Shown: positions 5,271-29,772 of the stretch, piece by piece
How positions within the stretch are numbered: the first letter of the stretch is position 1
Layout: each line of letters begins with the position of its first letter
Assembly (NCBI GenBank): GCA_001778495.1
Contig: MFHE01000010.1
Location: 1 to 53,291 of the forward strand
DNA: 53,291 bases
Reading direction: 5' to 3'
From: Candidatus Giovannonibacteria bacterium RIFCSPHIGHO2_01_FULL_45_24
Lineage (GTDB): Bacteria; Patescibacteriota; Minisyncoccia; UBA11713; 2-01-FULL-45-33
The notes under the pieces: generated by a model
Database searches by the model: none
What the model was told of the DNA's origin: nothing
What the model saw: the letters and a program-made list of their open reading frames with translations, nothing else
Position numbers and translations under genes: made by a program

Positions 5271-5312
5271 TATACTATCTATCACCAACGATCGTTGAAT
5301 ATAGATACTATG
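5271..5312. promoter_or_regulatory. 42-bp imperfect palindrome with a perfect 12-bp core CAACGATCGTTG (5286-5297), overlapping the stop of the PaaX-like gene
   Basis: Arms tatactatctat / atagatactatg match 10 of 12. The left arm is tandemly duplicated (attctatactat x2, 5256-5279). Confidence 0.6.
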
Positions 5313-5970: not shown

Positions 5971-6018
5971 CTATATACTATCTTTAAACAACGATCGTTG
6001 TAAATACATAGTATAGAG
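5971..6018. promoter_or_regulatory. 48-bp imperfect palindrome with the same core CAACGATCGTTG (5989-6000), 4-51 nt upstream of the PaaX-like start
   Basis: Shares tatactatct-N5-caacgatcgttg exactly with the 5271 site. Minus strand gives TTTACA-18-TAGTAT, then 7 nt to the ATG. Confidence 0.6.
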
Positions 6019-6031
6019 CACGGTAAGAAAG

Positions 6032-6739
6032 TTATCCCCAGAGCAGGGTGTATGCCGCAACGACGGAGGCGGTTTCGGAGCGCAATGTCAGACGACCCAA
6101 GGATATAATTTCAAAATTTGCGCGCCCTGCGGCGAAAATTTCGCGCTCTTCCCAGCCGCCTTCCGGGCCAACAAAAAGATTCATCTGCCTGTCACCCGCG
6201 CCGCGCATCATATTTTCTTTCTCGGAAACTGCTGCAAAATAAGTTTTTGCTCCCGAGAGCCCCGCTTGACCTACCGCCCGCTCAAAAAAAACAACCGGAT
6301 GCAATTTTGGGATTACCGCCCGCCCCGACTGCTCCGCGGCTTCTTTTAAAATCGCGGCACACCGCTCCGTATTTAAGCTTTTCTTTTCGGATCTGGCGGA
6401 TATTACCGGCGCGATCTCCGAAACCCCAATTTCTGTGGCTTTCTCCAAAACCCATTCAAACTTATCTTTTTTAACCAGCGATTGGTATAGAATCAATTTC
6501 TTTGATGGTTCACGGGTGTTTTCAAGTTTTTCCCTAAGCATAAGAGCTGCGGAGCCGGCTTCAATATTTTTGAGCTCAAAGACAAAATCAAAGCCGAGAT
6601 ACTCCGGAGCGCCGCTGAAAAACACGGCTTGTTCTCCTTTTCGAATTTTTAAAACGTCTCTAATCTGGTGAATTACCGAGCGGTCTCTCACCACCAAAAT
6701 TTCTTTATTTAATTCTTGCGGCAGATAAAACCTGTGCAT
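6032..6739 (-). CDS. rsmE: 16S rRNA (uracil1498-N3)-methyltransferase
   Basis: 235 aa, MHRFYLP... N-terminus and C-terminal GPEGGW..E motif. Confidence 0.88.
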   Translation of the reverse strand: MHRFYLPQELNKEILVVRDRSVIHQIRDVLKIRKGEQAVFFSGAPEYLGFDFVFELKNIEAGSAALMLREKLENTREPSKKLILYQSLVKKDKFEWVLEKATEIGVSEIAPVISARSEKKSLNTERCAAILKEAAEQSGRAVIPKLHPVVFFERAVGQAGLSGAKTYFAAVSEKENMMRGAGDRQMNLFVGPEGGWEEREIFAAGRANFEIISLGRLTLRSETASVVAAYTLLWG

Positions 6740-7419
6740 TATTTCGTATCAATAATTATAGTAAATTCTCCTCTTTGGCGCTCGCCCGTGAAGTGTTTTT
6801 GGGCTTCGGATAATTTGCCCCTGAAAATTTCTTCGTGAAGCTTTGTCAGCTCCCTGCCGATGTTTACATATCTATCGCCATTGGCCACTTCCAGCTCACG
6901 CAGAGTTTTTTGTACGCGGTGGGGCGACTCAAAAATAATTACCGGCATATTTATCTTGGCAACACGCCCGAAAAATGTCTGCCGGCCTTTTTTGCGCGGA
7001 GGGAAACCCAAAAAAATAAAATTACTTAAATCGATGTCGCTGGCGGACACTATAGCTGAAAGCGCCGAGGGCCCCGGGATCGGTATCACGGAAGCCGAGC
7101 TTCCACTTGGAAGTTCGGCTTCCAAGTAAGCGATGAGTTTGCGGCCCGGGTCGGAAATGCCCGGAGTTCCTGCGTCAGTGACTAGCGCCAAATTTTTGTT
7201 TTCTTTGATTAAATTTAGAATTTTTTCTAAAATTTTTGGAGATGAATGCTCTCGAAAAGAAATCGTCGGCTTGGAAATCCCGAGATGCGCCAGCAATTTT
7301 CTGGTTACTCTTGTGTCTTCAGCTAAAACAACATCAACTGATTTTAACGTTTCTATCGCGCGGAGCGTGACGTCTTTTAAATTCCCGATGGGCGTGGCTA
7401 CGATAAAGAGCTTTGGCAT
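6739..7419 (-). CDS. rsmI: 16S rRNA 2'-O-ribose C1402 methyltransferase (tetrapyrrole-methylase fold)
   Basis: Track ORF 6739..7539 trimmed to MPKLFIVATPIGNLKDVTLRA (ATG at 7419). DAGTPGISDPG and PGPSA motifs present. Confidence 0.88.
   Translation of the reverse strand: MPKLFIVATPIGNLKDVTLRAIETLKSVDVVLAEDTRVTRKLLAHLGISKPTISFREHSSPKILEKILNLIKENKNLALVTDAGTPGISDPGRKLIAYLEAELPSGSSASVIPIPGPSALSAIVSASDIDLSNFIFLGFPPRKKGRQTFFGRVAKINMPVIIFESPHRVQKTLRELEVANGDRYVNIGRELTKLHEEIFRGKLSEAQKHFTGERQRGEFTIIIDTK
7090..7127. repeat. REP-like palindromic element, about 1.5 copies, in-frame inside rsmI
   Basis: GGAAGCCGAGCTTCC (7090-7104) plus ACTTGGAAG-TTCGG-CTTCCAAGT (7105-7127). Translated in rsmI as LEAELPSGSSAS. 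Confidence 0.8.
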
Positions 7420-7450: not shown

Positions 7451-8299
7451 TTAAGCACCGCGTTCGCGGAAGTAGTTGTCGCTGTATTTCCAAAAGAGCT
7501 TCTGAAGTTTTGAGGTAAGGGTATCCGGCCCGACCTCAAACGCGCGATAGATGATTTGCTTTATAGGCGTGATACCGCGAGTAGTGGAGGTAAAAAATGC
7601 CTCCCGGCAAAGTTTCAGAAGATCAATGCCAATTTCATACTCGGAGACTCTTTTGAAAAGTTCCGACCGCTGCGCCAAATCCAGAACAATTTTGCGCGTC
7701 ACACCTGCAAGCGCCCTGTTATGAGTATATGGCGTGATCAACCAATCGTCGGTAGTAATAAAAAACACGTTCTCATACGGCCCTTCCAAAATTCCGTCTA
7801 TGTGGTCGTAATAAAGAAAACTATCGTATCCCATCCCCTGTATTCTTTGTATATTTCTGTTAACCGTCCCGTAGTCGCATGCCAGTTTCAAATTCGGAAC
7901 CTTGCGTCGCTCCACTACAGTCATCAGACGCAGAGGTTTGGATTCGCTCTCTGTGAGCGGCCTGACATCCAAGGAAAGCTTGGGCGAGCCCGAGGGAGTT
8001 TTCATGTCATCCGAGTCCCCCGGCGTGACGAGTATACGAACCACCGAACGGTCATTGCCGTCTTTTTTCAAAAGGCACTCCGCTTTCGCCTTTATCTCCT
8101 GCCCGGAAGGCAGTTTCTCCCGCGGAATATATCCGTCGCAGCCCGCCATCAGGCGGCTCCAATGGTCATACCAATGGAAGAGAACCGCGCCCCGAGCGGC
8201 TAAAACTTCTATGACTCCGTCCGCCCGTTGCAGCCCCAAGTCATTCTGCCAAGAAATTTTTTCCCGCCAATCCCCTTCGCACCAGATAAGATTCTGCAT
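7451..8299 (-). CDS. Class IV (branched-chain/D-amino-acid/ADC-lyase type) aminotransferase
   Basis: Track ORF trimmed to MQNLIW (ATG at 8299), preceded by AAGGAGG 5 nt upstream. Confidence 0.78.
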   Translation of the reverse strand: MQNLIWCEGDWREKISWQNDLGLQRADGVIEVLAARGAVLFHWYDHWSRLMAGCDGYIPREKLPSGQEIKAKAECLLKKDGNDRSVVRILVTPGDSDDMKTPSGSPKLSLDVRPLTESESKPLRLMTVVERRKVPNLKLACDYGTVNRNIQRIQGMGYDSFLYYDHIDGILEGPYENVFFITTDDWLITPYTHNRALAGVTRKIVLDLAQRSELFKRVSEYEIGIDLLKLCREAFFTSTTRGITPIKQIIYRAFEVGPDTLTSKLQKLFWKYSDNYFRERGA

Positions 8300-16884: not shown

Positions 16885-19536
16885 TTATTTCTTCTCTAAA
16901 TTTTTGCGGTGCTCCCCCGTTCCTAACAAGCCACAACGTTTATACTTCTTTCCAGAACCGCACCAGCAGGGGTCATTGCGGCCCAGTTCGTCCTTTTTGT
17001 CAAAAGTTGAACTTCTGACATTTTGTTTAAATTCATTCGCAGGAGCGGGGCCGATTTTAAAAATCAAATTAGCGATGTAGGCGTTGATATGCCCTTCCAG
17101 CTGCTGGAACATTTTTGCGCCCTCGTTTTTGTATTCTACCAAAGCAACCCTTTGGCCGTAAACGCGAAGTTGTACGCTGGAACGCATGTATTCCATCGCC
17201 TCCAGATGCTCCATCCAAAGAGCGTCAATCGCCTGGAGCATGATTACGCGAAGCGCGTCGGCAAACCCCGCAACCTCCTTTTTTTGCTTGACGAATGCCG
17301 TTTCAATTTCTTTCTCCGCGAGCTCGGCCAGCTCTTCCATGCTTTCCATTTTCCCAACTCGCTCGCGGATATTAGAGAAATCTCCGCCGCCCAAAATGCT
17401 CGCCAAATTCTCCCCAATCTCTTTTTTGTTCCATTCTTCCGGCGAGCCCATGGTGTGTGCCTGGATAATCCTGCTCGCCACTTCTTTAAGCAAAGCCAAC
17501 GCCTCCTCCTCTATTTCTTCGGGCTTCGCGAAAAGCAGTTTTTTTCTCCGTGAATAAATCGCCGCCCTCTGCTTATTCATCACGTCGTCATACTCCAAAA
17601 CATGCTTTCTAGTGTCAAAGTTAAATCCCTCAATTTTCCCCTGCGCGGACTCAATCGCCCCCGACACCATTTTGTTTTCCACTGGCTCGTCTTCCGGAAT
17701 GCCGAGCTTGCCCATTAAATTTTTCACCCTCTCCGGCGCGAAAATTCGCATAAGGTCATCCTCCAAAGAAACAAAAAATTGCGTCCCGCCCGGGTCGCCC
17801 TGCCTGCCGGCTCTGCCCCGAAGCTGGTCGTCTATGCGGCGCGCTTCGTGCCGCTCCGTGCCGATGACAAGCAATCCGCCCACACTCCTGACTCTCTCGG
17901 CGTCTTCGGAAACCGCCGGGTTTCCTCCGAGAATTATGTCCACTCCCCGGCCGGCCATGTTGGTCGCGACGGTCACGGCCCTGAATCTCCCCGCCTGCGC
18001 GATAATCGCTCCTTCCTCCTCGTGATTTTTAGCGTTCAGCACTTTGTGTTCTACGCCTTCGCGCGAGAGGAGCGCGGAAAGTTTTTCATTTTTTTCAATT
18101 GAAACAGTGCCAATAAGCACGGGCTGGCCTTTTTCGTTTCTTGCTTTTATTTCGCGCGAGAGAGCTTGCCATTTCCCTTTTTCCGTCTGGAAAACTTTGT
18201 CCGGCAAATCGTTTCTTACCATGGGCTTATTCGTCGGGATCTCGGTGACATCCAAATTATATACTTTGTGGAATTCCTCGGCGGAAGTTTGCGCCGTGCC
18301 CGTCATCCCGGCCAGCTTTTTATACATCCTGAAATAATTTTGGAAAGTAATTGTCGCAAGCGTGCGGGATTCCTGCTGGACCCGCGCGCCTTCTTTGGCC
18401 TCAATGGCCTGGTGGAGCCCGTCCGACCACCTTCGCCCGGGCATCAAGCGACCGGTAAATTCATCAACAATGGTTACTTCCCCATTTTTTACGACATAAT
18501 CTTTGTCGCGCTGAAAAAGAGCGTGGGCGCGAAGCGCCTGCTCCAGATGATGCACATATCTCATCCCGCGCTCGGTGTAGATGTCTTTAAGCCCGAGCAT
18601 CTGCTCCACTTTTTCAATTCCGGATTCGGTCACGAGCGCCGTTTTCATTTTCTCATCAATATTATAATCCTCGTTTTCTTTAAGCCGCAGGACGATTCTT
18701 GAAAAAACTTTGTAAAGCTCGGCGGATTCGGCATCAGGAGTTGAGATAATCAACGGCGTCCGCGCTTCATCAATTAAAATTGAATCAACCTCGTCAACAA
18801 TCGCGAAATTGTGGCCGCGCTGGGCCATCTGGCTCGGAGCGTAAACCATATTGTCGCGCAGATAATCAAACCCGTACTCGTTGTTCGTCCCATAAGTGAC
18901 GTCGGCGGCGTATGCTTCGCGCCGGGGGCAGGGACGCAAAAATTCGTGAACAACTTTAAAAGCGCCCAATGTGTCGCGGGCTTGGTCTTTGGCGGTTAAA
19001 CCGCCATTTGGCGGTTTAACCGCCAAGTTCGCATCATATAAGTAACTTGCTTCATGATTCAAAACCCCCACGGATAACCCCAGCGCATTATATATCTGCC
19101 CCATCCAAACGGCGTCCCTCCGCGACAGATAGTCGTTGACCGTCACAATATGAACGCCTCCACCAGCTGGCGGGGCCGGAAGCGCGTTGATATAAGCCGG
19201 CAAAGTCGCAACTAAAGTTTTCCCTTCTCCGGTCTTCATCTCCGCGATTCCTCCTCTGTGGAGCACAATCCCGCCCATAAGCTGGGCGTCAAAATGCCTC
19301 TGGCCCAAAGTTCTTTTGGCGGCATCTCTTACGACGGCAAATGCTTCGGGAAGAATTTCATCAAGCCACGCGCCGTCCTCCAACCGTTTTCTGAATTCCG
19401 CTGTTTTATTTTTTAGTTCCTCATCAGAAAGTTTTTGGACTCCATTTTCCAGATTGTTTATTTCTTCAACAATCGGCCGGAGCTCGTCTACGGCTCTTTC
19501 ATTTGAGCCCCCAAAAATTTTCCCAAAAAATGACAT
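16885..19536 (-). CDS. secA: Preprotein translocase ATPase SecA
   Basis: 883 aa. MKTGEGKTLV Walker A, VDEVDSILIDEARTPLIIS DEAD-like motif, C-terminal zinc motif CWCGSGKKYKRC. Confidence 0.98.
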   Translation of the reverse strand: MSFFGKIFGGSNERAVDELRPIVEEINNLENGVQKLSDEELKNKTAEFRKRLEDGAWLDEILPEAFAVVRDAAKRTLGQRHFDAQLMGGIVLHRGGIAEMKTGEGKTLVATLPAYINALPAPPAGGGVHIVTVNDYLSRRDAVWMGQIYNALGLSVGVLNHEASYLYDANLAVKPPNGGLTAKDQARDTLGAFKVVHEFLRPCPRREAYAADVTYGTNNEYGFDYLRDNMVYAPSQMAQRGHNFAIVDEVDSILIDEARTPLIISTPDAESAELYKVFSRIVLRLKENEDYNIDEKMKTALVTESGIEKVEQMLGLKDIYTERGMRYVHHLEQALRAHALFQRDKDYVVKNGEVTIVDEFTGRLMPGRRWSDGLHQAIEAKEGARVQQESRTLATITFQNYFRMYKKLAGMTGTAQTSAEEFHKVYNLDVTEIPTNKPMVRNDLPDKVFQTEKGKWQALSREIKARNEKGQPVLIGTVSIEKNEKLSALLSREGVEHKVLNAKNHEEEGAIIAQAGRFRAVTVATNMAGRGVDIILGGNPAVSEDAERVRSVGGLLVIGTERHEARRIDDQLRGRAGRQGDPGGTQFFVSLEDDLMRIFAPERVKNLMGKLGIPEDEPVENKMVSGAIESAQGKIEGFNFDTRKHVLEYDDVMNKQRAAIYSRRKKLLFAKPEEIEEEALALLKEVASRIIQAHTMGSPEEWNKKEIGENLASILGGGDFSNIRERVGKMESMEELAELAEKEIETAFVKQKKEVAGFADALRVIMLQAIDALWMEHLEAMEYMRSSVQLRVYGQRVALVEYKNEGAKMFQQLEGHINAYIANLIFKIGPAPANEFKQNVRSSTFDKKDELGRNDPCWCGSGKKYKRCGLLGTGEHRKNLEKK
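18989..19026. repeat. 38-bp nested palindrome inside secA
   Basis: ttggcggttaaaccgcca-tt-tggcggtttaaccgccaa gives 18 perfect mirror pairs. Each half also contains GGCGG-N5-CCGCC. Translated as LAVKPPNGGLTAK. Confidence 0.85.
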
Positions 19537-20786: not shown

Positions 20787-21794
20787 TTATTTATCCACAA
20801 AGCGGCTGTAGTAGCCCCTGTCCGCTTTAAGCGCCTCGCGGCCGGTGTATTGGTACTTAAATCCATAGTTTGTAATTTTTGAGCCGTCAACGATAATCGG
20901 GTAAGTGTAAGAATTGATGCCCGCCGGGACCGTTGGAATCCTCCCCCGCGAAAGGTGCCACAGCGCGCCGAAACAGAGTTTCCCCAGCCGCATCGGCACT
21001 CTTATTGAGAGCTTGCCGATTTCTTTCGCCATATCTTTCAGCAAAAAGAAGTCGGCTGGGGCGATGTTGAATATCTCGTATTTTGAAGATGCACCTCCGC
21101 CGGCCATAAACCGGACGGCATCCCAAATATCGTCTTCGTGAACAAACTGCCTCGCGGAATCCGGCCCGGTGACGGGCACAACCGGGAGGCCGAATTTCAT
21201 CGCACGCAGAAGCCCGAAGCGCTTGAACGCAAACTGACCCCGTGGACCCGTGATGGCGCAGGGGCGGAACACCAAAACCTGCGTCGCGGAAAACGCATAA
21301 AACGCGGCTTTTAGTTTTTCTTCAATTATTTTCTTATCCACGCCGTAAAGATACTTCTCCTCGCGGAAAGAGTCTGATTCTTTGAATTTATAGTTCGTGG
21401 AATTCTCGGGAAGCGCGCCATAAGAAGCAACGGTTGAAAAATGTATGAGCCGCGGTATTTTGTTTTTTGAAACAAAATCAAAAACCCTCTCCGCCGCCGT
21501 AACATTAGATTTTATCTGCCATGCCCTTTTTTTGCCGTAGCCCTCGCGGATGACATAAGCGCAGTGTATCACCAAATCCGGCCTGCCCTCGGCCAAAACT
21601 TTTTCTTCCCAGCCGGGGTCGCCAAGATTGTGCTGTACAAAAGCAATCCGATTGCTACTTAGCAATCGGATTGCTAAGTTGGATGGAGCCTTCATATCCA
21701 AAGCGATTATTTTTTCAACTTCCGGATTTTCATCAAAGCGGTCAGCGAGCATCCCGCCTATGTATCCCGACGTTCCGGTTATAAAAATTTTCAT
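20787..21794 (-). CDS. NAD-dependent epimerase/dehydratase (SDR) family protein
   Basis: 335 aa with MKIFITGTSGYIGG Rossmann motif. Confidence 0.85.
   Translation of the reverse strand: MKIFITGTSGYIGGMLADRFDENPEVEKIIALDMKAPSNLAIRLLSSNRIAFVQHNLGDPGWEEKVLAEGRPDLVIHCAYVIREGYGKKRAWQIKSNVTAAERVFDFVSKNKIPRLIHFSTVASYGALPENSTNYKFKESDSFREEKYLYGVDKKIIEEKLKAAFYAFSATQVLVFRPCAITGPRGQFAFKRFGLLRAMKFGLPVVPVTGPDSARQFVHEDDIWDAVRFMAGGGASSKYEIFNIAPADFFLLKDMAKEIGKLSIRVPMRLGKLCFGALWHLSRGRIPTVPAGINSYTYPIIVDGSKITNYGFKYQYTGREALKADRGYYSRFVDK
20791..20799 (+). promoter_or_regulatory. Perfect DnaA-box 9-mer (TTATCCACA on plus strand) within the last codons of the epimerase gene
   Basis: Read directly from the sequence. 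Confidence 0.3.
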
Positions 21795-28881: not shown

Positions 28882-29049
28882 GGTTTAAATAATAACAAAA
28901 GCAAAACCCAAGGCAAGGGAAAAGAAAAAGGCCCGGGGTTGAGAGATTCGTCGCGTAGTTAGTCCGTCTGTCCAGCTTGGATCTGGTTTTTCTGTTTTTG
29001 CTGGCTCCTCGATTTTTGTCAAGCGCGCGTGGTAATGCTCTGCCCGGCA

Positions 29050-29076
29050 GCACTTGGAAGCCGGACTTCCAAGTGC
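29050..29076 (+). repeat. REP-like perfect hairpin, left flank
   Basis: GCACTTGGAAG-CCGGA-CTTCCAAGTGC: 11-bp arms and a 5-nt loop. Confidence 0.9.
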
Positions 29077-29088
29077 TAATATGGCAAT

Positions 29089-29733
29089 ATGAGAAAAGAA
29101 GTATTTGCCGTTGGCAAATTTTATCATATCTACAACCGCGGGACTGATAAGCGAAAGATTTTCCTAGATAAATACGACTTTGAGCGATTCCTGCAAAGCA
29201 TGCAAGAATTTAATACGCTAGAACCAATAGGTAGTATTTATGAAAATTCTTTCGTAAAAGATCAACTTGGGAGTTCGGCTTCCAAGCAACGCAAATTAGT
29301 AAATTGCGTGGCTTATTGCCTTAATCCAAATCACTATCATTTTATTCTTCAGCAAACCAAAGAAAGAGGCGTAGAAAAATTTATGCAAAGACTCGGCACT
29401 GGTTTTACAAACTATTTTAATAATAAATACCACCGCAGTGGAGTATTGTTTCAGGGCAAATTTAAATCTCGCCATATTGACTCCAATGAGTATCTTTTAC
29501 ATATAAGCGCTTATGTAAATTTAAACGACCGCATCCACCGATTTGGGAGTTCGGCTTCCAAGTCGAGTTGGATAGAGTATGTAGAAAAACAAAAAGGGAT
29601 TTGTGAGAAAAAAATAATCCTAGATCAATTTGGAAACGTTGCGGAGTATAAAGCTTTTGCGGAAAGCTCGCTCAAAGACATATTGGCACGCAAACAACTT
29701 TACAAAGAGCTGGAAATATTACTGTTTGATTAA
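29089..29733 (+). CDS. HUH/Y1 single-strand DNA transposase, IS200-like / REP-associated (RAYT-like)
   Basis: 214 aa. N-terminal FYHIYNRG, HUH motif NPNHYHFIL, C-terminal Tyr region (EYLLHISAYVNLN). Confidence 0.78.
   Translation: MRKEVFAVGKFYHIYNRGTDKRKIFLDKYDFERFLQSMQEFNTLEPIGSIYENSFVKDQLGSSASKQRKLVNCVAYCLNPNHYHFILQQTKERGVEKFMQRLGTGFTNYFNNKYHRSGVLFQGKFKSRHIDSNEYLLHISAYVNLNDRIHRFGSSASKSSWIEYVEKQKGICEKKIILDQFGNVAEYKAFAESSLKDILARKQLYKELEILLFD
29266..29286 (+). repeat. REP-like hairpin copy inside the transposase ORF (internal copy 1)
   Basis: CTTGGGAG-TTCGG-CTTCCAAG, translated as LGSSASK. Confidence 0.85.
29543..29563 (+). repeat. REP-like hairpin copy inside the transposase ORF (internal copy 2)
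   Basis: TTGGGAG-TTCGG-CTTCCAAGT; 29542-29562 matches copy 1 at 20 of 21 positions. Translated as FGSSASK. Confidence 0.85.
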
Positions 29734-29772
29734 CTTGGAAGCCGGACTTCCAAGTGCATCTTCCAAGTGCAT
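29733..29772 (+). repeat. REP-like hairpin, right flank, plus a 13-nt tandem duplication
   Basis: ACTTGGAAG-CCGGA-CTTCCAAGTGC (29733-29757) starts in the TAA stop codon. CTTCCAAGTGCAT occurs twice (29747-29759, 29760-29772). Confidence 0.9.

Follow-up and report, generated by a model that had tools for sequence, protein, structure and literature searches.

A short in-frame palindromic repeat in rsmI of a Giovannonibacteria genome, from a hairpin family associated with a RAYT-like transposase gene

The rsmI gene on contig MFHE01000010.1 of Candidatus Giovannonibacteria bacterium RIFCSPHIGHO2_01_FULL_45_24 contains a 38-nt double hairpin at 7090-7127, translated as YLEAELPSGSSAS and followed by the IPIPGPSA motif (coordinates are those of the window, by which we mean the whole stretch of 53,291 nucleotides analysed). 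We think it likely that this segment represents one copy of a short REP/REPIN-type palindromic repeat, whose family is associated with the RAYT-like transposase gene at 29089-29733; the spread of the repeat in trans by that transposase is our inference. The features at rsmI are:

6739..7419, minus strand: rsmI, 16S rRNA C1402 2'-O-methyltransferase, 226 aa; the insert is at residues ~98-110
7090..7127, minus strand: rsmI palindromic doublet, in frame; the coding strand is ACTT-GGAAGCCGAACTTCC-AAGT-GGAAGCTCGGCTTCC, read (Y)LEAELPSGSSAS
7105..7127, no strand assigned: rsmI full hairpin, with a 9-bp stem ACTTGGAAG/CTTCCAAGT and a 5-nt loop
7090..7104, no strand assigned: rsmI 15-mer, which repeats the inner 15 nt of the full hairpin in inverted orientation, complementary at 14 of 15 positions

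The rsmI reading frame runs on the minus strand from an ATG at 7419 to a stop at 6739. Its product matches the Pfam TP_methylase (PF00590, E 3.5e-28), and its nearest named relatives are 16S rRNA C1402 2'-O-methyltransferase RsmI proteins of Candidatus Giovannonibacteria. On the plus strand, GGAAGCCGAGCTTCC occupies 7090-7104 and ACTTGGAAGTTCGGCTTCCAAGT occupies 7105-7127, both within the rsmI frame; the coding strand at the element reads ...LIAYLEAELPSGSSASVIPIPGPSA. The preliminary description had taken these as a full copy and a half copy of the hairpin that flanks the transposase gene. The sequences are as it gave them, but they are not separate pieces: the full hairpin and the 15-mer form one unit, an inverted doublet resembling a REPIN. 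Two folds are possible for this 38-nt element, a pair of small hairpins or a single long one; in the latter case 7090-7123 can form a single 15-bp stem (dG -15.6 kcal/mol, z -6.2). No known RNA family in Rfam overlapped the hairpins.

We scanned both strands of the window with the family pattern CTTGGRAG-N5-CTTCCAAG, allowing up to two mismatches, and compared the yield with that from 100 shuffles of the window. There were 12 strand-matches, against 0.04 in the shuffles, and 0 of 100 shuffles reached 12. The matches correspond to six sites, namely five family hairpins (7106-7126, 29053-29073, 29266-29286, 29542-29562 and 29734-29754) and one overlapping half-copy match. Apart from rsmI, all of them lie at one gene, 29089-29733. 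This excess upholds the original claim that the rsmI hairpin belongs to the family of the transposase hairpins. Two finer points of that claim were equally sound: the loop differs by one base from the reverse complement of the flanking hairpin (TTCGG vs TCCGG), and the full copy is read in different frames in the two genes (LEAELPS in rsmI, LGSSASK in the transposase), with GSSAS for the half copy.

The transposase gene and its hairpins are laid out as follows:

29049..29077, no strand assigned: 5' flanking hairpin with a 12-bp stem, AGCACTTGGAAG-CCGGA-CTTCCAAGTGCT, ending 11 nt before the ATG
29089..29733, plus strand: RAYT-like Y1 (HUH) transposase, 214 aa; Y1_Tnp, predicted fold nearest 4ER8
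29266..29286, plus strand: intragenic hairpin 1, codons 60-66, LGSSASK, in a loop of the model with pLDDT <50
29542..29562, plus strand: intragenic hairpin 2, codons 152-158, FGSSASK, in a loop of the model
29733..29755, no strand assigned: 3' flanking hairpin; the final base of the stop codon falls within it
29747..29772, plus strand: tandem duplication of a 13-nt unit, CTTCCAAGTGCAT x2 (the 3' arm plus 5 nt), at the 3' hairpin

The protein is hit by the Pfam Y1_Tnp (PF01797) at 28.3 bits, above the cut-off of 23. Residues H82-Y83-H84 and Y142 fall at the positions expected for the HUH motif and the catalytic tyrosine, and H82, H84 and Y142 are invariant among 64 homologues. Searches of PDB sequences with the transposase, both as a single sequence and as a profile, gave no relevant match. 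The best Foldseek match to its AF2 model (pLDDT 82.4) was 4ER8 (E 1.5e-5, TM-score on target 0.58), with the TnpA proteins of IS608 and ISDra2 next; 4ER8 is E. coli TnpA_REP with a bound REP hairpin (PMC3479197). The 5' flanking hairpin is itself stable (dG -13.5, z -7.7).

The 53-kb window holds a single transposase cassette. The complete Giovannonibacteria genome CP066687.1 carries a 93%-identical transposase between the same two neighbour genes, without the tandem duplication; the two regions are syntenic, and the distance between rsmI and the transposase gene is 22 kb in both. The gene behaves like a resident RAYT rather than a hopping insertion sequence, and one cassette at a conserved syntenic position speaks against an active insertion sequence, with the reservation that the count covers the window only and not the genome. 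We also observed that protein identity between the window and CP066687.1 is 93% for the transposase and only 78% for RsmI, which points to unusual conservation for a transposase or to recent transfer.

The same arrangement is found more widely. Flanking hairpins occur on both sides at 12 of 13 other RAYT loci examined, and most Patescibacteria RAYT loci that we examined share one layout, with hairpins ~36 nt before the ATG, at codons ~60 and ~152, and at the stop. The two intragenic sites are conserved in the protein as well, as a L-G-x-x-x-S-K motif at both positions in nearly all of ~120 close transposase homologues. The three variable residues of this motif change together: sites 1 and 2 of one protein match at 1.87 of the 3, compared with 0.77 +/- 0.08 for shuffled pairings, and in 38 of 93 homologues they are identical. 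Many single differences between the two sites are what reverse-complementing the triloop would yield (S/R from TCG/CGA, F/E from TTC/GAA). Within one cassette the inner stems of the four hairpins may differ, and complementarity is full even inside the reading frame (for example CTTGGAGAC-TCA-GTCTCCAAG in the RAYT locus L086). The loop of site 2 is TTCGG in the window and CCGAG in CP066687.1 (L006, 10451-10477), the DNA being otherwise 92% identical; CCGAG is close to CCGAA, the reverse complement of TTCGG, and is also the loop of the rsmI 15-mer. We found no description of hairpins inside RAYT genes in the RAYT literature searched, a search that was incomplete and cannot prove absence.

Two further doublets lie in the window, both in frame:

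18991..19028, minus strand: secA doublet, 38 nt; ACTT-GGCGGTTAAACCGCC-AAAT-GGCGGTTTAACCGCC, read NLAVKPPNGGLTA
21642..21679, minus strand: epimerase-like doublet, 38 nt; ACTT-AGCAATCCGATTGCT-AAGT-AGCAATCGGATTGCT, read NLAIRLLSSNRIA

The repeat unit can be written ACTT-U-AAGT-U', a 15-nt mini-palindrome present as an inverted doublet. When complete it is a 42-nt perfect palindrome, equal to 14 codons, of which the rsmI copy has 38 nt; the conserved stem, read directly, contains a stop codon in none of the six frames. All three dispersed copies in the window sit in reading frames, and the window has 7 family hairpin sites in its 53 kb, 4 of them in the transposase cassette. The host of the second new doublet is an NAD-dependent epimerase-like gene (20787-21794), whose orthologue in CP066687.1 has the doublet at the same site, with the differences in U mirrored in U'. 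The SecA of another Giovannonibacteria contig (L128) is 7 residues shorter at the point of the secA doublet.

We considered whether the dispersed copies always reproduce the transposase's own hairpins. This holds for rsmI and fails for the secA and epimerase doublets, whose inner stems are unlike those hairpins; therefore not all hairpins follow one recognition sequence. A strand bias was likewise rejected: the three window doublets share one orientation (G-rich strand), which hinted at a strand-specific mechanism, but non-redundant metagenome doublets occur in both orientations relative to the host gene (28 vs 22). No target motif or target duplication was conserved at the borders of nine doublets. 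In these nine, 98.5% of cells are paired, and 13 of 15 pairs show double changes; the set had been selected for pairing beforehand, and the unbiased test is the comparison of loops in metagenomes.

For that comparison we scanned metagenomes with ACTTGGAAG-N5-CTTCCAAGTGGAAG-N5-CTTCC, leaving both loops free. The second loop is the exact reverse complement of the first in 69 of the 72 matches. Taking non-redundant contexts only, the loops are complementary in 53 of 56, with 26 different loops represented, where chance would give 1 in 1024. About half of the doublets extend with AAGT into the 42-nt palindrome, read xLEAxLPSGSxASK or xLEAxLPLGSxASK. Reading frames of at least 150 aa contain 65 of the 72 (frame length serves here as a proxy for coding status, and some of the matches are redundant).

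A scan for single hairpins, using one genome per species, gave at least 119 loci. Among the matches listed, hairpins of the type ACTTGGAAG...CTTCCAAGT come largely from Patescibacteria, the hosts including Paceibacterota, Saccharibacteria and Giovannoni-, Morani-, Nomura-, Campbell-, Vogel- and Kaiserbacteria. The 91 hairpins among the matches listed divide into 23 in RAYT cassettes, 31 in other frames of at least 200 aa, 8 ambiguous and 29 seemingly intergenic, so that 31 of 68 non-cassette hairpins lie in reading frames. The host genes named by NCBIfam among the matches listed include TopA, CCA-adding enzyme, ArgS (in four genomes), TsaD, FtsK, GyrB, AspRS, MiaA, MnmA, Pgk, transketolase, the PolI exonuclease domain and Elp3. 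Several genomes share some occupied homologous sites, and one site is occupied in different frames: an N-terminal loop of ArgS reads LGSSASK in one genome and LEAQLPS in another. Further copies, the lack of which was to have counted against the preliminary description, are present both in the window (the two additional in-frame doublets) and, in number, in other Patescibacteria. On REP, RAYT or palindromic elements in Patescibacteria/CPR, the literature searched held nothing relevant, again without proof of absence given an incomplete search.

Some hairpins seen in these scans deserve separate mention. The Mur ligase gene of L128 contains two family hairpins, CACTTGGTTGTC-G-GACAACCAAGTG at 7689-7713 and CCACTTGGGTG-CTGGA-CACCCAAGTGG at 7969-7995. 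The inner sequence GCGAAGC or its complement appears in many loci of the genome scan (e.g. L035, L052, L075, L084); d(GCGAAGC) is an exceptionally stable DNA mini-hairpin, and such an inner sequence would favour a role in single-stranded DNA. A second family of hairpins, built on the core CCCGA(C/T)-loop-(A/G)TCGGG, has many members in relatives' loci (L004 13350-16619; L129 6142-19687). Similar hairpins in the window, at 1552-1572 and 1742-1762, fall in or just beyond a match to 23S rRNA, so some members of this second family may be rRNA helices.

We turn to the rsmI site itself. Among 120 RsmI relatives, most have 15-16 residues in the loop from SDPG to PG, as E. coli RsmI does, compared with 21 in the window protein; aligned to the solved E. 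coli structure 5HW4, the window protein has 5 residues more, in agreement with the earlier estimate of a loop about 5 residues longer. Judged from these sequences, the window loop is 5-6 residues longer than what appears to be the basal state. In the AF2 model (pLDDT 81.8), residues 90-102 form a helix that includes YLEAE, 103-109 (LPSGSSA) a loop, and 110-114 the conserved strand; as modelled, the element supplies the helix end and the surface loop before the IPIPGPSA strand.

Presence and absence among orthologues are directly observed. The preliminary description would have been refuted had close relatives that lack the transposase or hairpin family carried the identical rsmI segment. That is not what we found: CP066687.1, the closest complete relative, has an rsmI with a short loop and without the hairpin, yet has the transposase. 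The insert is not private to this genome, however, since two other relatives at 75-78% RsmI identity (P0002 and P0004) carry the segment. In P0002 both hairpins have changed from GGAAG/CTTCC to GGAAA/TTTCC with pairing kept, and the hairpins of a further RAYT cassette (L131) have this GGAAAC/GTTTCC stem type as well. In P0004 the pairing of the element has decayed. Filled and empty alleles differ by 14 residues in place of 8, which is no clean insertion, and no closer relative was available to give exact insertion borders, our protein collection containing no RsmI between 78% and 100% identity. We tried to date the insertion with a rough NJ tree of 115 RsmI proteins from which the loop had been taken out; filled and empty alleles were interleaved, and the tree was too weakly resolved to count gains or losses.

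The same RsmI loop contains other inserts in other genomes. P0017 has a different palindromic insert, a hairpin with a 16-bp stem. Ten proteins (P0013, P0015, P0025, P0031, P0044, P0046, P0053, P0097, P0108, P0114) have a different 29-residue insert (YWLNSxIVKWLNSxKTTQPFNxxTIQL), scattered among short-loop alleles in the tree, the DNA of which in L130 is an imperfect long palindrome. P0021 and P0095 have inserts of 48-54 residues with a GGGTTTTTCG...CGAAAACCC hairpin.

By analogy with E. coli TnpA_REP and IS200/IS605 elements, we propose that the transposase would recognise the hairpin in single-stranded DNA and would cut and rejoin at its foot, so that copies could spread in trans; binding and cleavage are both inferred. 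A copy arriving in a gene would add a short peptide and leave the gene unbroken, because it comprises 14 codons and its stem is free of stops in all six frames. The RsmI site, a helix end plus surface loop in the model, may tolerate extra residues, and we infer a neutral or nearly neutral effect of the insert on RsmI. The link to a resident Y1 transposase drawn in the preliminary description stands as an association; mobilisation is inferred from that association only, and no transposition event was observed.

The closest known counterparts are the REP/BIME sequences and RAYT (TnpA_REP) genes of E. coli and relatives (PMC3333891, PMC3479197). As there, the HUH Y1 gene is apparently single-copy, occupies a fixed chromosomal site and is flanked by a hairpin repeat that is also dispersed elsewhere, and the predicted fold is nearest 4ER8. 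Unlike there, sequence comparison detects no similarity between the transposase and solved RAYTs, the hairpins are perfect palindromes, and two copies lie inside the transposase reading frame. The GTAG/GTGG (or CGTC) foot tag of REPs is absent, the sequence adjacent to the hairpin being variable (CA/CC/TC/TT + ACTTGG), and the repeat departs from the extragenic location of REPs, most dispersed copies being in genes. REPINs, described for Pseudomonas fluorescens as REP doublets that form hairpins (PMC3116915), likewise are recurring inverted doublets able to form one long hairpin, and they are associated with a vertically inherited RAYT, as our repeat may be; the present unit differs in being much shorter (38-42 nt with a 4-nt spacer), in that each half is palindromic, and in being mostly intragenic. 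REP-RAYT and REPIN-RAYT associations are well described (PMC3116915, PMC5581495).

Intragenic GTAG/CGTC REPs are known from Opitutus terrae and others, and CGTC REPs are stated to have no dedicated transposase (PMC3733652). With these and with the Rickettsia palindromic elements (RPEs), our repeat shares in-frame palindromes in housekeeping genes, peptides that look tolerated, and small or streamlined genomes. The RPE comparison offered in the preliminary description is apt, as an analogy only, no RPE sequence having been compared. RPE-1-type elements are ~100-150 bp long; the repeat described here has 14 codons only, belongs to the family of a resident RAYT gene and has a Patescibacteria host. 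IS200/IS605 elements (IS608, ISDra2) also consist of a Y1 HUH gene bounded by hairpins, and their known mechanism (single-strand hairpin recognition without target duplication) is our model for this element; the difference is that here short hairpins are dispersed rather than the gene, and the whole cassette is not apparently multi-copy (one in the window). In-frame palindromic repeats and REP-RAYT pairing are thus already known. What appears to be new is that the repeat has spread across Patescibacteria, that it does not avoid coding DNA, and that the transposase gene has two conserved, co-varying hairpins. A very short, codon-multiple palindrome with a stop-free stem and no GTAG tag further sets the repeat apart from known systems.

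A possible objection to the mobile-repeat interpretation is that the hairpins are host cis-elements under selection within genes, either binding sites of a domesticated transposase or DNA/RNA structures serving replication, transcription pausing or mRNA stability, and so no selfish copies that the genes merely tolerate. We regard this as unlikely, while recognizing that several observations suit it: pairing is kept by compensated changes in coding DNA (rsmI, the epimerase orthologues, the transposase gene), the two intragenic transposase hairpins hold fixed positions across the family, and the syntenic transposase, at 93% amino acid identity when RsmI has 78%, fits a domesticated gene. Against it, the copies are found in unrelated genes, in both orientations (28 vs 22) and in all three frames; their position relative to gene starts and ends is inconsistent, close orthologues are without copies, and the one orthologous copy in P0004 has decayed. 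Whether pairing is kept by selection or by copy-correction within the palindrome is not separated by our data.

An explanation we hold to be somewhat less likely again is that template switching during replication (quasi-palindrome correction) made and perfected the palindromes where they stand, with no transposition involved, the likeness among sites reflecting a shared mutational bias. Template switching would produce two observed features: the second unit repeats the first exactly in inverted orientation, down to the loops, and loops become, or nearly become, their reverse complement when close relatives, or the two sites of one gene, are compared. What it leaves unexplained is why unrelated sites, in many genes and genomes, have an identical 9-bp outer stem ACTTGGAAG/CTTCCAAGT, and why this is linked to the transposase cassette. 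Template switching may nevertheless be the source of the doublet shape and of the loop changes. It is scarcely credible that we are dealing with normal RsmI coding sequence, or with a peptide motif under selection, whose resemblance to the hairpins is due to coincidence or protein-level convergence: the LEAEL part does continue a native helix in the model, but chance is excluded by 12 pattern matches against 0.04, the reading frame of this DNA varies from gene to gene, compensation occurs in the DNA while the peptide changes, and most orthologues lack the segment.

Returning to a mobile repeat associated with the transposase, a wider proposal can be made only tentatively, and we would not be surprised to see it fail: a phylum-wide, vertically inherited RAYT-REPIN partnership in the gene-dense, tiny genomes of Patescibacteria, in which a stop-free palindrome of 14 codons resides mainly in housekeeping proteins, pairing is actively maintained in reading frames, and the transposase gene contains two obligatory, co-changing target copies that could be an autoregulatory or self-templating device coupling the enzyme with its population of hairpins. 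Classical REP/REPIN elements avoid genes. The present repeat occurs in coding DNA at roughly the frequency expected without avoidance (65 of 72 doublets in long reading frames), and it can sit there because it is a whole number of codons with a stop-free conserved stem. If general, this would explain part of the lineage-specific short insertions in conserved Patescibacteria proteins, among them RsmI, SecA, ArgS, GyrB, FtsK and TsaD, would provide markers for strain tracking, and would add a large group of uncultured bacteria to those with a RAYT-REPIN association. The co-varying hairpins of the transposase gene give a handle on how enzyme and target sequence stay matched. Such palindromes can also confuse alignments, assemblies and gene-based phylogenies in these genomes.

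Several other palindromic or inserted sequences were observed in the window. Positions 1-1725, on the minus strand, match Rfam LSU_rRNA_bacteria at 962 bits and are the 5' portion of a 23S rRNA gene; the match takes 1725 nt to cover model positions 1-1316, leaving ~400 nt extra, perhaps an insertion like those reported for rRNA genes in this group of bacteria. In or adjoining this gene are several strong hairpins, at 1069-1980. Two intergenic palindromes, at 5272-5311 and 5971-6018, share a common core, ATACTATC...CAACGATC/GATCGTTG; they have no relation to the transposase hairpins, are situated upstream of genes on the minus strand and could be operator or terminator sites. Finally, secA has a second short extra segment at ~19155-19178, PAPPAGG where a relative has TG, which coincides with an imperfect GC-rich palindrome.
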